Shown here: positions 10,491-54,886 of the stretch, piece after piece | Layout of the letters: every line of letters begins with the position of its first letter | Numbering within the stretch: the stretch's first letter is position 1 | From: an uncultured Acidimicrobiia bacterium | Lineage (GTDB): Bacteria > Actinomycetota > Acidimicrobiia > Spongiisociales > UBA5794 | Reading direction: 5' to 3' | Length of the DNA: 64,000 bases | Assembly: GCA_963812375.1 (NCBI GenBank) | Contig: CAWEUW010000007.1 | Coordinates: forward strand, 560,535 to 624,534 | Notes under the pieces: model-generated | What the model was told of the DNA's origin: nothing | Seen by the model: the letters and a program-made list of their open reading frames with translations, nothing else | The model's database searches: none | Translations under genes and position numbers: made by a program

Positions 10491-10557
10491 GGCGTCAAGC
10501 GACTCTGCCCGGACTCGTTTCCCCTCCCCCGGACGGTCTTTCGTCGCCAGACGGGCC

Positions 10558-11189
10558 TTCCCCTCCCCCGGACGGGGGAGGGGTGCCGCCGTCAGGCGGC
10601 GGGGTGGGGTGCGGGTGTCGATGTCCCTTGCCGGACCCGAACGCGTGGGGGATCGTCACCCCGATCCGAGAATGGTGCGAACCCCGTCGTCCCGACCACA
10701 GAAGGCTTGAACCGAGGACGCCGTCGTTGTAACGCAGCACCATGAACCGCGACGACAGGGAGTGGATCCAGCATCGCGCCGCCGAGCTGCGGCGGGAGAT
10801 GCCCGAAGCCGAAGTCATGCTGTGGAGCCGGCTACGGGGGAGGGCGCTCGGTTACCGGTTCCGACGCCAGTACGTGGTGGGCAGGAGGATCATCGACTTC
10901 TATTGCCCGCAGAGACGGCTCGCAATTGAGGTCGATGGTCCGACTCACGATCCGTCCCGTGATGAGAGAGGCGACGCCTGGCTCGCGAGCAAAGGGATCC
11001 GGGTACTGCGCTTCGCCAACGACGATGTCTATCACAATCTCGACACCGTCCTCGGCGACATCGCTGTCGCTCTGCTCACACAGCCGGGGAAACGTCCCCG
11101 CAACCGAAGGGTCCGGTAAGACACCGCCACTTCACACACCCCACCCCGGCCACTACGTGGCCACCCCTCCCCCATCCGGGGGAGGGGAA
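10558..11189 (+). mobile_element. DUF559 cassette 1: endonuclease gene flanked by composite hairpin inverted repeats
   Basis: Left end 10558-10611 TTCCCCTCCCCC-GGAC-GGGGGAGGGG-T-GCCGCC-GTCA-GGCGGC-GGGGTGGGGTG. Right end 11137-11189 reverse-complements to TTCCCCTCCCCC-GGAT-GGGGGAGGGG-T-GGCCAC-GTA-GTGGCC-GGGGTGGGGTG. Same architecture at 54160-54760. Mobility is inferred, not shown. Confidence 0.65.
10742..11119 (+). CDS. DUF559 / Vsr-like PD-(D/E)XK endonuclease domain protein
   Basis: RAAELRREMPEAEVMLWSRLR...FRRQY...IDFYC...LAIEVDGPTH...DAWLASKGIRVLRF.N is the DUF559 family pattern. Confidence 0.9.
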   Translation: MNRDDREWIQHRAAELRREMPEAEVMLWSRLRGRALGYRFRRQYVVGRRIIDFYCPQRRLAIEVDGPTHDPSRDERGDAWLASKGIRVLRFANDDVYHNLDTVLGDIAVALLTQPGKRPRNRRVR

Positions 11190-11262
11190 CCTCGCGGGCA
11201 CTCCGTGGCCGCTGCTTCTCCATCCGGGGGTGGGGAACCTCGCGGGCAGTCCGTGGCCGCTG
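11173..11262 (+). repeat. Tandem 42-bp direct repeat (period 48) overlapping the right end of cassette 1
   Basis: CATCCGGGGGAGGGGAACCTCGCGGGCACTCCGTGGCCGCTG (11173-11214) vs CATCCGGGGGTGGGGAACCTCGCGGGCAGTCCGTGGCCGCTG (11221-11262), 2 mismatches. Confidence 0.85.
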
Positions 11263-11357
11263 TGAACCGCGAAGGCTCGGCTGCTGTTCCCTAGCAAGGC
11301 TCGGGTGGAATGAGCCAGGCGTTACGCTCGAGGCGGCGTCGGCGACGGGAGCGACCA

Positions 11358-12002: not shown

Positions 12003-12446
12003 GTGCAGCCAGCGAAACCAACGATCCTCTTTCTGTGCACACACAACGCGGGCCGGTCCCAGATGGCGGCCGGCTGGATGCGCCACCTCGCCGGCGACCG
12101 TGTCGACGTGCTCTCCGGCGGATCGACGCCCGCCGAGCAGGTCAACCCGGCGGCGGTGGAGGCGATGGCGGAAGCCGGGGTCGACATCAGCCGTGAGCAT
12201 CCCAAACCGTGGACCGAACGTTCGCTCGGAATCGCCGACGTGGTGGTGACGATGGGTTGCGGCGACGCCTGCCCGGTGTTGCCGGGCAAGCGCTATGTCG
12301 ACTGGGAGCTCGACGACCCTGCCGGTCTGTCGACGGCGGAGGTCCGCCCGATCCGCGACGAGGTCGGACGGCGGGTGCGAGCGCTGCTCGAGGATCTCGG
12401 CGTCGAGTCGGTCGAGCTCGATCCTGGGCTGGGCGACGGCGTTTGA
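12003..12446 (+). CDS. arsC: Arsenate reductase ArsC (LMW PTPase fold)
   Basis: LFLCTHNAGRSQMA active-site loop, TMGCGDACP, DWELDDP. Confidence 0.9.
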   Translation: MQPAKPTILFLCTHNAGRSQMAAGWMRHLAGDRVDVLSGGSTPAEQVNPAAVEAMAEAGVDISREHPKPWTERSLGIADVVVTMGCGDACPVLPGKRYVDWELDDPAGLSTAEVRPIRDEVGRRVRALLEDLGVESVELDPGLGDGV

Positions 12447-12450
12447 CCGG

Positions 12451-13159
12451 TCAGCCGGCGGGCTCGGGCAGCCGTGCCCTCACGATGGCGTTGTGCATGC
12501 CGTCGGCCACGGGAGAGGTGAGGGCGACGGTGACGTCGACGAACCCGGCGGCGGCAAGGCCCCGGCGGTACTCGGACACCGACAGAGCGCCAGCGATGCA
12601 CCCGGCCCACTCGCCTCGCTCGGCGCGCTGCTCGGGGGAGAGATGGTCGTCGGCCACGATGTCGCTGACCCCTATCCGACCGCCCGGACGGAGCACCCGG
12701 GCCATCTCGGCGAAGACCGCCGGCTTGTCGGTCGACAGGTTGATCACGCAATTCGAGATGACGACGTCGACCGAACCGGAAGGGAGCGGGACGTCCTCGA
12801 TCCGTCCCAGCAGGAACCGGACGTTGTCCACGGCTTCGGCGGCGGCGTTGCGCCGAGCCAGTTCGAGCATCTCCGGGGTCATGTCGAGACCGATGGCGAC
12901 GCCGCCCGGTGCGACCCGCCGTGCCGACAGGATCACGTCGATACCGCCTCCCGAACCGAGGTCGAGCACGGTCTCCCCGGGCAACAGGTCTGCCACCGCA
13001 GTCGGGTTCCCGCAGCCCAGGCTCATCGTCGCCAGTGCACCCGCCTCGACGTAGTCGTCGGCGCCGCAGGTGGCTCCGCCGCAGCAGCCGGTCTCGCCGT
13101 CGAGCATCTGCAGTGCTGCACTGCGGTAGCGGTCGGCAACTCTCTCGTTCGGTGTCCAT
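12451..13159 (-). CDS. arsM: Arsenite S-adenosylmethionine methyltransferase (frameshift near 13140)
   Basis: CCGG...SLGCGNPTAVADL.PGETVLDLGSGGGIDV, GLDMTPEML, SNCVINLS.DK, CIAGAL; ATG overlaps arsR stop (TGATG). Confidence 0.9.
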
Positions 13160-13482
13160 CAGCATGCGCTCCATTCAGCAGTGGTGCGGGCCATGCCCAT
13201 CACCAATTCGGCAGCGGTCGGGAAACATTCGAGGCATCGCTCGTTGACTCGGTACAGGTTGGATGTGCCCTGCTCCTCGACGAGCACGAAGCCCACATCG
13301 GCCAGGTGCCTGAGGTGATGCGAAACCGTCGACTGGCCGACATCGAGCCTGTCGACGATCTCGCCGACCGACATCGGCCGGTCCTCGGTGGCGAGCAGGT
13401 TGAGCACCAGGATCCGGCTCGGGTCGCTCAGCGCCCGGAACCAGGTCGCCCAGGTGGCGGCGGCATCACGGGTCACATTCAT
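13159..13482 (-). CDS. arsR: ArsR/SmtB family repressor
   Basis: FRALSDPSRILVL...VGEI...QSTVSHHLRHL..GFV winged helix; C-terminal CLEC; directly upstream of arsM. Confidence 0.85.
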   Translation of the reverse strand: MNVTRDAAATWATWFRALSDPSRILVLNLLATEDRPMSVGEIVDRLDVGQSTVSHHLRHLADVGFVLVEEQGTSNLYRVNERCLECFPTAAELVMGMARTTAEWSAC

Positions 13483-54076: not shown

Positions 54077-54104
54077 TCACCCCGGCTCTCGCATCCCCGT
54101 GACC

Positions 54105-54141
54105 TTTCCCCTCCCCAGGATGGCGTTCCCTCCCAAGGATG
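54105..54141 (+). repeat. Partial outer-half copies of the left repeat of cassette 2
   Basis: TTTCCCCTCCCCAGGATGG (54105-54123) and TTCCCTCCCAAGGATG (54126-54141) precede the full left end. Confidence 0.75.
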
Positions 54142-54159
54142 CCTTTCCCGGGCGGGCCG

Positions 54160-54760
54160 TCCCTCCCAGGATGGGGAGGGGGCCGCCGTCAGGCGGCGGG
54201 GAGGGGTGTTCCAGCGAGATCACCTGACCGAGCCCGAAGCGTCGCCGACATCCCCACCCCGAGGTCGGTGGCCTTGAACCGTCGCCGCCTCTGCGATATG
54301 CAGCAGGGATGGACGTCGACGACCGTGAGTGGATCGTGACTCGAGCCGCCGAGCTGCGTGGGGCGATGCCCGACGCCGAGGTCATTCTGTGGAGCCACCT
54401 GCGACGGCGGGCTCTCGACGGGTACCGGTTCCGCCGCCAGTACATCGTTGGGCGGGTGATTCTCGACTTCTACTGCCCGCAGCGGCGGCTCGCCATCGAG
54501 GTGGACGGACCGACCCACGACCCCACCGACGACGGACAAAGGGACGCGTGGCTGGCAACCAGGGGGATCCGGGTACTGCGTGTCGGCAACGACGACGTGT
54601 ACCGGCACCTCGATGCTGTGTTGGCCGACATCAGGGTCGCCCTGATGGTTCAGCCGGGGAAACGTCCCCGGAACCGGCGGGAACGGTGAGCTTCAGCGGA
54701 AGGCGAGTACCCCTCCCCGGCCACTACGTGGCCACCCCTCCCCATCCTGGGGAGGGGAAA
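54160..54760 (+). mobile_element. DUF559 cassette 2: endonuclease gene flanked by composite hairpin inverted repeats
   Basis: Left 54160-54208 TCCCTCCC-AGGAT-GGGGAGGGG-GCCGCC-GTCA-GGCGGC-GGGGAGGGGTG. Right 54708-54760 TACCCCTCCCC-GGCCAC-TAC-GTGGCC-A-CCCCTCCCC-ATCCT-GGGGAGGGG-AAA. Confidence 0.65.
54309..54689 (+). CDS. DUF559 / Vsr-like endonuclease domain protein (paralog of 10742-11119)
   Basis: Same motifs; by manual alignment about 95 of 126 positions are identical (~75%) to the first copy. Confidence 0.9.
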   Translation: MDVDDREWIVTRAAELRGAMPDAEVILWSHLRRRALDGYRFRRQYIVGRVILDFYCPQRRLAIEVDGPTHDPTDDGQRDAWLATRGIRVLRVGNDDVYRHLDAVLADIRVALMVQPGKRPRNRRER

Positions 54761-54886
54761 CCGCGTTCCGGGGAGGGGAAACCCACTCTCGGGGACGGGG
54801 CACCCGTTCCGGGCCGACCGGGAGGGCGACGCGGGTTGGCGGCGGCGGATACGATGCGGGCTGCCCGCCATCGTGGAGGATCCTCA

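Follow-up and report, generated by a model that had tools for sequence, protein, structure and literature searches.

We analysed a 64,000-nucleotide stretch of DNA (the window, C7:560535-624534) from the metagenome-assembled genome (MAG) of an uncultured Acidimicrobiia bacterium, whose 3.03-Mb assembly has 70% GC and comprises 12 contigs. At 10558-11189 of the window a 125-aa gene of the DUF559 family lies between two inverted composite-hairpin ends, as the initial annotation of the sequence had described. Gene and structured ends together form a real, discrete cassette, with a layout like that of repetitive extragenic palindromic (REP) sequences and their REP-associated tyrosine transposases (RAYT). 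Comparison of parts shows three such cassettes, diverged but intact: the one at 10558-11189 (copy 1), a second about 43 kb away with the same end design, again as annotated, and a third on another contig.

Anatomy of the DUF559 cassette

Both ends of copy 1 are triplex-motif-type repeats of about 50 nt, delineated by sequence, inverted repeats and DNA fold. The left end (10558-10611, forward strand) consists of a C-arm (CCCCTCCCCC, 10560-10569), a GGAC loop, a G-arm (GGGGGAGGGG, 10574-10583), an inserted hairpin termed B1 (GCCGCCgtcaGGCGGC, 10585-10600) and a third block (GGGGTGGGG, 10601-10609). The right end (11139-11189, reverse strand) has the same parts in the opposite order with a different inner hairpin, namely the complement of the third block (CCCCACCCC, 11139-11147), hairpin B2 (GGCCACtacGTGGCC, 11148-11162) and the C/G hairpin (CCCCTCCCCC-atcc-GGGGGAGGGG, 11164-11187). 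In a repeat search, 10558-10592 and 11155-11189 formed an inverted pair of 35 nt with 89% complementarity, and the tails of the two ends formed a perfect inverted pair of 12 nt. Folding as single-stranded DNA was performed with ViennaRNA, whose DNA folding does not model triplexes, and gave for each end two adjacent hairpins and an unpaired tail of 9 nt (right end, z = -6.0).

The intact gene between the ends (10742-11119, forward strand) encodes a protein that matches Pfam PF04480 with E = 9e-30 (score 103.2 bits, cut-off 20.6 bits; the match spans positions 4-108 of the 109-position profile), and the proteins of copies 2 and 3 score 101 bits (E = 3.6e-29) and 113 bits, respectively. Residues D52, E63, D65 and H69 are invariant in an alignment of 14 sequences, and the catalytic motif D ... 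E-x-D ... H-D is intact. Profile search matched the protein to PDB entry 3HRL (E = 2e-33) and to the endonuclease I-Bth0305I (3R3P; E = 3e-4). An AlphaFold2 model (predicted local distance difference test score, pLDDT, 88.8) forms a single domain with two N-terminal helices, which Foldseek aligned to 3hrl (template modelling score, TM, 0.85), to 3r3p (TM 0.77-0.79, probability 1.0) and to Vsr (1vsr/1cw0; TM 0.41-0.44). The protein is accordingly modelled with a Vsr-like PD-(D/E)XK nuclease fold; Vsr belongs to the same fold family, and 3HRL and I-Bth0305I are much closer than Vsr in both sequence and structure, with I-Bth0305I ranking by profile and fold as the closest characterised enzyme. 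The ratio of nonsynonymous to synonymous divergence (dN/dS) between the copy 1 gene and its paralogues is 0.19-0.24, and this ratio and the invariant residues make the predicted nuclease look functional. Participation in Vsr-type repair alongside a cognate methylase was considered and rejected, as no DNA (cytosine) methyltransferase gene lies nearby. The wider family is large, with 21,879 clusters at 50% identity matching the 125-aa protein at E <= 0.001. Several relatives (P0001, P0003, P0006, P0028, P0086 and P0103) carry the DUF559 stretch inside proteins of 262-1214 aa or have two to three matched stretches per protein, and such long multi-stretch relatives suggest tandem or in-frame inserted DUF559 modules.

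A putative promoter (10707-10741, forward strand) precedes the gene, with TTGAAC at 10707-10712, a 17-nt spacer, TAACGC at 10730-10735 and 6 nt before the ATG. This geometry (TTGAA[C/A], 17 nt, TAnnGn, 6 nt, start codon) recurs in 3/3 paralogues within a surrounding spacer that is only 46% identical, and points to a probable promoter inside the cassette that would give a leaderless mRNA; a promoter/terminator scan with an E. coli-type consensus did not pick it up and found nothing.

Copy 2 has a left end at 54157-54208 (forward strand; C/G hairpin, B1 hairpin and third block GGGGAGGGG), a 126-aa DUF559 paralogue at 54309-54689 (forward strand; tblastn and Pfam; 76% aa identity to copy 1) and a right end at 54711-54760 (reverse strand; third-block complement, B2 hairpin and C/G hairpin) that shares 90% identity with its copy 1 counterpart. 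Identity between the two copies is 82-90% at the ends, 75% in the coding sequence and 46% in the spacer. The copy 3 gene (C6:73984-74376) is 61-65% identical to copies 1 and 2. Three gene-less elements, about 77% alike, have the same plan: two in this genome (C11a, C11:176693-176967; C11b, C11:336374-336615) and one in a congener (G004:2006145-2006422). In 5/5 elements (copies 1 and 2 and the three gene-less ones) B1 (GCCGCC..GGCGGC) stands on the 5' side of the gene and B2 (GGCCAC..GTGGCC) on the 3' side.

Within the 3' end of the open reading frame lies a subterminal 20-mer (CAGCCGGGGAAACGTCCCCG, 11081-11100, forward strand) that holds a small palindrome (GGGGA-aacg-TCCCC), is identical at 20/20 positions between copies 1 and 2 and is probably a cis element of the right end. 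A recognisable remnant of it is retained in C11a, C11b and the G004 element, and the gene-less elements are therefore best read as internally deleted cassettes. The pattern of substitutions among the copies shows purifying selection acting on the protein and on the ends. Next to the right end of copy 1, a repeat search found degenerate copies of a 48-nt unit (B2-like hairpin plus C/G hairpin) at 11195-11260, comprising one full unit and the beginning of another, in tandem with the right end at a spacing of 48 nt and 83% identity; similar doubled right ends occur in C11a and the G004 element.

Inverted repeats around a gene could also act as a switch that flips the DUF559 segment by programmed inversion. 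A bacteria-wide screen found DUF559 14-fold enriched among predicted programmed-inversion targets (PMC9881135), and the inverted arms of copy 1 lie about 530 bp apart. That enrichment, however, would be given by any gene flanked by inverted repeats, and inversion would leave expression unchanged here because the putative promoter would be flipped together with the gene. The neighbourhood contains no recombinase gene, the orientation of the gene relative to B1 and B2 is constant in all copies, and we consider programmed inversion very improbable.

Association of DUF559 genes with a dispersed repeat class

The C/G hairpin of the ends occurs 36 times in the genome under a strict pattern and 0 times under the reversed pattern. 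Iterated nhmmer searches recovered 54 copies of a 72-nt unit (TTT-CCCCTCCCC-loop-GGGGAGGGG-TGG...GGCCgaaGGCC...-GGGGAGGGG), and a generic motif finder (C-arm, G-arm and third G/(A or T) block) returned 94 units, compared with 8 in a reversed-genome control; the genome-wide check for solo end-repeats proposed in the initial annotation turned up about 90 of them. Five of the six gaps that flank the three DUF559 genes hold a repeat, compared with about 2-3% of gaps genome-wide. In the 64-kb window repeat units are found solely at the two DUF559 genes, and DUF559 is the sole small gene enclosed by inverted repeat pairs in this genome. The annotation had asked whether the repeats might be abundant and randomly placed: abundant they are, but not random relative to DUF559. 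The top-scoring 72-nt repeat of the genome (61.7 bits) is located at C6:73858-73928, directly upstream of the copy 3 promoter.

Short DUF559 genes are patchy among this genome and 40 relatives (present in 15/41 genomes) and are almost everywhere flanked by hairpin repeats, which are lineage-specific. To extend the comparison, 80 loci from many phyla were collected by using a five-sequence genus alignment, since the 14-sequence alignment was too diverse. At 24 of the 69 testable loci the bracketing inverted repeat is stronger than every one of the roughly 55 control placements made within that locus (about 1.2 loci expected), and arms with a shared hairpin-plus-G/T-tail design occur in Hymenobacter, Armatimonas, Longimicrobium, Fimbriimonadales, Bacteroidales, Candidate Phyla Radiation (CPR) bacteria, Betaproteobacteria and Planctomycetota (Isosphaeraceae). 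The strict motif lies within 300 bp at 58/80 loci (density excess 61-fold) and was present in 56/127 (44%) DUF559-adjacent gaps versus 12/545 (2.2%) other gaps of the same loci (odds ratio 35, Fisher P = 3e-34). Paired hairpins at DUF559 flanks, which the annotation had proposed to seek in relatives, recur in these and across phyla, and the comparisons show that the association between DUF559 genes and the repeats is non-random both here and across phyla.

In a high-GC genome, where C/G-tract hairpins are easily found, ordinary GC-rich terminator hairpins might be imagined to lie beside a small gene by chance. This explanation is rejected by the hairpin (36 vs 0), unit (94 vs 8), flank (5/6) and cross-phylum (P = 3e-34) statistics, and we give it practically no credence.

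In E. coli K-12 (segment NC_000913.3:1351150-1351420) a canonical TMECO/BoxC unit (CCCTCGCCC-ctctg-GGGAGAGGG-tta-GGGTGAGGG) lies about 170 bp downstream of the DUF559 gene ycjD; a profile match between YcjD and Vsr has been reported, and YcjD was classed as Vsr-like (PMC1189080). The ycjD stop codon directly follows a CCCTCTCCC arm, and between the gene and the TMECO unit there is a degenerate partial duplicate, about 45 nt long, of the 3' end of the gene. Among viral contigs five relatives were found, one of them with the motif nearby, giving no sign of routine phage carriage of cassettes. Literature searches found no paper on a DUF559-repeat pairing, in agreement with the annotation, which knew of no formal description.

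Holder et al. 2015 (PMC4666352), who cite previous studies of BoxC and PIT, described the BoxC/PIT/TMECO "intrastrand triplex motif" by the pattern CCCTCNCCC N3-6 GGGNGAGGG N3 GGGNGAGGG, as an intergenic and abundant motif that is tied to local genome rearrangement. They sought mobility genes near the repeats and found none; no associated protein was reported, and ycjD and endonucleases go unmentioned. TMECO and the repeats analysed here share a C-rich arm, a pairing G-rich arm and a second G-rich block with A or T at the A positions, and both lie in intergenic regions as tens of scattered copies, at loci that vary between close relatives. The repeats of this genome follow a pattern of their own, CCCCTCCCC N3-6 GGGGAGGGG [loop] GGGG(T/A)GGGG. 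Loop 1, at 3-6 nt, is within the published range, whereas loop 2 is N3 in TMECO and here either a 16-17-nt GC hairpin (DUF559 ends) or about 37 nt including GGCCgaaGGCC (72-nt family). Loop 2 is thus longer than the short loops of the motif, and a search limited to loops of 1-6 nt, like the published one, would overlook these repeats; they are therefore a variant and not TMECO members. The hosts also differ, an Acidimicrobiia MAG here and a proteobacterium or cyanobacterium for the published motif. By their architecture, the ends of copy 1 are assigned to a variant form of the published BoxC/PIT/TMECO motif that recurs throughout the genome. Of the new element class suggested in the initial annotation, the non-random layout holds, whereas the ends are not specific to the element and belong to this genome-wide BoxC/PIT/TMECO-type family.

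For asymmetric arms near DUF559 genes, the third block fits a mirror rule in 90 cases and a direct rule in 41, a modest support for the mirror rule, given that near-symmetric arms are compatible with either. Identity of the solo repeats is 78% among paralogues and 92% between orthologues, and only 1.2% of pairs are >90% identical. Of the 54 72-nt units, 15 (C-arm side) and 17 (tail side) lie <=80 nt from a stop codon, compared with about 6% for random positions, with no bias in orientation relative to gene ends (15 vs 17, n = 54).

Another dispersed repeat family, unrelated to the first, was also seen; its units are about 100-120 nt long and include ...GCGATGGGGTAGGGGCCCCATCTGCGG(G)AGGAG... 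(at least 18 BLAST matches in G004). It is located at C11:336620-336740 and C11:81080-81130 in this genome and at G004:2354525-2354570, and it fills the G004 site equivalent to the copy 3 locus.

Orthologous sites and neighbouring genes

Five paralogues with 61-76% aa identity occupy five different loci in two congeners, and at 4/4 testable loci the cassette is missing from another congener, with flanks up to 98.6% identical. At site 1, where the copy 1 locus diverges from its congeners over 10502-11311, a Uma2 (PD-(D/E)XK) gene is present in G003 (with an in-frame stop) and in G004; an extra partial C-arm copy (TTCCCCTCCCCCGGACGG, 10519-10536, forward strand), an exact direct repeat of 10558-10575, falls within this segment. 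At site 2 (copy 2, 54078-54844) G003 has 86 bp and G004 a VapBC-like pair, with flanks 97-98% identical, and at site 3 (copy 3) G004 has 90 bp of a different repeat, with flanks 98.6% identical. The locus of the second copy of congener G001 corresponds to a gap of about 17 bp in this genome. The cassette has changed location over evolutionary time, as its presence and absence at orthologous sites show; the empty orthologous sites that the annotation proposed to look for exist insofar as congeners are without the cassette, but none is a clean empty site. Triplex-motif repeats are missing from the Uma2 and VapBC cassettes that occupy these hot spots in congeners, and the repeats therefore travel with DUF559.

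The segments 10502-11311 and 54078-54844 appear as swap sites for small selfish genes, with congener flanks 89-98% identical. A G001 DUF559 gene on contig C72 has on its contig-end side low-complexity A/G-rich sequence and an rRNA-like stretch, probably an assembly chimera. In G038 and G027 many triplex-motif units lie about 100-300 bp from contig ends, and the repeats evidently break assemblies.

Copy 1 is neighboured by a ROK regulator with a helix-turn-helix domain, a second ROK-family gene that is likely a sugar kinase, and a DUF4126 gene, and copy 2 by transglutaminase-like and acetyl-CoA synthetase genes. No transposase, integrase, recombinase or DNA methylase gene was found among the neighbours of the DUF559 copies, which bears out the annotation for the two copies in the window. 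The methyltransferase at 12451-13107 is of a small-molecule type and not a DNA methylase; it lies close to the DUF559 gene because an ordinary arsenic-resistance-like cluster occupies 12003-13482 (a low-molecular-weight phosphatase-type ArsC-like gene, an ArsM-like S-adenosylmethionine methyltransferase gene and an ArsR-family regulator gene).

Candidate mechanisms and relation to known systems

As the simplest reading of these features we infer, tentatively and at somewhat less than even confidence, that the gene and the repeats are a functional pair in which the nuclease acts on the folded ends by homing-like copying. The nuclease would recognise the repeat folded as a hairpin or a triplex and nick or cut there, and the break would be repaired by copying from a cassette-bearing copy in a homing-like gene conversion, with the repeat arms serving as recognition and homology. 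The long-term outcome would be a cassette that is kept and occasionally spread while its ends are homogenised; gene-less pairs would represent decayed cassettes, and the solo repeats, about 90 in number, would be related units that persist independently. Homing-like copying appears more likely than cut-and-paste because the closest characterised relative is I-Bth0305I and no transposon hallmarks were seen.

I-Bth0305I (PDB 3R3P; Taylor et al. 2011, PMC3239194) is a multidomain homodimer from a phage group I intron that cuts the intron-less allele. The DUF559 protein is like this EDxHD homing endonuclease in the E-x-D ... H-D motif, in fold and in a selfish, patchily distributed lifestyle. It differs in being a free-standing single domain of 125 aa, located between structured repeats at intergenic positions and not in an intron or intein, and the orthologous sites, where unrelated sequence or other cassettes are found, show no recognisable uninterrupted target allele.

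Several observations weigh against homing-like copying by this enzyme. The AlphaFold2 model of the 125-aa protein has no evident extra DNA-binding or strand-transfer module. Target-site duplications were sought at three cassette sites and ten solo-repeat sites by comparison with G003 and G004, and none was found; the sites without a cassette or repeat hold unrelated sequence or other cassettes and have no clean junction. All sites are replacements by unrelated sequence, and neither termini nor duplications can therefore be defined. The paralogues are old (synonymous divergence, dS, 0.9-1.5), and so, by their identities among paralogues and orthologues (78% vs 92%), are the solo repeats. Copy 3 and the second G001 copy have both repeat units upstream and none downstream, and across phyla the orientation of the motif relative to the gene varies (72 tails-in vs 40 tails-out).

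The repeats also persist in genomes that lack the gene. Congener G004, a single 3.25-Mb contig without a short DUF559 gene, keeps 46 copies of the 72-nt unit (2.8 Mb examined) compared with 54 here. About 9 of 43 orthologous solo-repeat sites differ between this genome and G004, and the filled-only sites are about symmetric (about 9 in this genome vs about 7 in G004). These counts speak against a strict dependence of the repeats on the gene; G004 nevertheless retains the decayed gene-less cassette, so that past presence of the gene is likely. G027 and G038 carry 165 and 82 canonical motifs, respectively, and no short DUF559 gene, which is weaker evidence because both are fragmented MAGs and a repeat-flanked 400-bp gene is easily lost from an assembly.

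It is this persistence of repeats without the gene that keeps alive a passenger or cis-acting role, the main rival reading, to which we assign a lower but appreciable probability. The repeats would arise and spread independently of DUF559, and the gene would be linked to them through recombination hot spots, or because they act as insulating terminators or stabilising hairpins; the substrate of the nuclease would then lie elsewhere, for instance in repair or defence. Besides the equal abundance of repeats in G004 and their abundance in G027 and G038, the link of the motifs to local genome rearrangement (PMC4666352), the variable hot spots at all three DUF559 sites, with other cassettes in congeners, and the solo units that often abut gene 3' ends (15 + 17 of 54) speak for such a role. 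Against it, Uma2 and VapBC occupy the very same hot spots without repeats, and the contrast between 44% and 2.2% of gaps would require a hot-spot effect highly selective for this single family in many phyla. The asymmetric placement of B1 and B2 and the subterminal block that gene-less derivatives retain resemble element ends and not terminators, and the published tests of PIT elements cited in PMC4666352 gave no promoter or terminator activity.

A true transposon, with DUF559 as a transposase of RAYT or IS200/IS605 (insertion sequence, IS) style that excises and reinserts the cassette and the solo repeats, is the special case that corresponds to the RAYT-like reading of the initial annotation, and we rate it improbable, below both homing-like copying and the passenger role. 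IS200/IS605 elements encode a Y1 HUH transposase that excises and inserts a single strand next to a short target; their subterminal hairpins differ between left and right, they make no target-site duplication and they give rise to short gene-less derivatives. The cassette is like them in its distinct left and right hairpins, in the lack of a detected target-site duplication and in its short gene-less derivatives, and unlike them in an unrelated enzyme class and in showing no sign of recent transposition. The terminal inverted repeats, the differing loci in different genomes and the lack of any other transposase candidate in the genome are further points in favour of a transposon. Set against these are the missing target duplications and clean empty sites, the lack of near-identical copies (dS 0.9-1.5; solo repeats 78% alike) and the persistence of repeats without the gene in G004; of the three features of classical IS elements and miniature inverted-repeat transposable elements (MITEs) that were compared, terminal inverted repeats alone are present, and the gene-less elements are relics of internal deletion, each at a single locus, and not amplified MITEs. 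We know of no Vsr-like nuclease that carries out strand transfer alone, and TnsA needs TnsB. A search for an HUH/Y1 (RAYT) transposase gave no PF01797 match in this genome, which is 65% complete. The RAYT-like arrangement proposed in the annotation thus stands in its layout and in the lack of a match to such a transposase; DUF559 itself is at best a candidate transposase, because the paralogues are old, target duplications and clean empty sites are missing and the repeats are kept in a congener without the gene.

In layout the homing-like pair would parallel REP/REPIN-RAYT systems (REPIN, a REP doublet), with one small gene of nuclease type flanked on both sides, in opposite orientations, by a structured repeat that is dispersed through the same genome, with doublets and singlets, and with a repeat sequence that is lineage-specific while its architecture is conserved. 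It departs from them in that the enzyme has a PD-(D/E)XK Vsr-like fold and is not an HUH/Y1 transposase, that several diverged gene copies occur per genome and that the repeats are present in normal numbers in a congener without the gene. Extended to all Bacteria, DUF559 proteins would be the cognate enzymes of BoxC/PIT/triplex-motif repeats, acting on the folded repeat as structure-specific nucleases, and would maintain and spread both cassettes and solo repeats by nick- or break-induced copying, a second and independent nuclease-repeat symbiosis beside REP/RAYT with another fold and possibly with recognition of non-B (triplex) DNA; we consider this wider proposal less likely than not.

BoxC/PIT/triplex-motif repeats have been known since the 1990s, in hundreds of genomes, without a function, origin or partner protein being assigned, and DUF559 is among the larger bacterial protein families that lack a function. 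The cross-phylum link between DUF559 and the repeats merges the two problems into one question, namely whether the nuclease binds or cuts the repeat that frames it. The nuclease may be the missing partner of the repeats; should it not act on them, the tight linkage would still need explaining. If it does, the pair would constitute a new enzyme-repeat system with a REP/RAYT-like layout and an unrelated nuclease, the enzyme would be a naturally occurring reader of hairpin or triplex DNA, and the genomic instability at these repeats would be explained.

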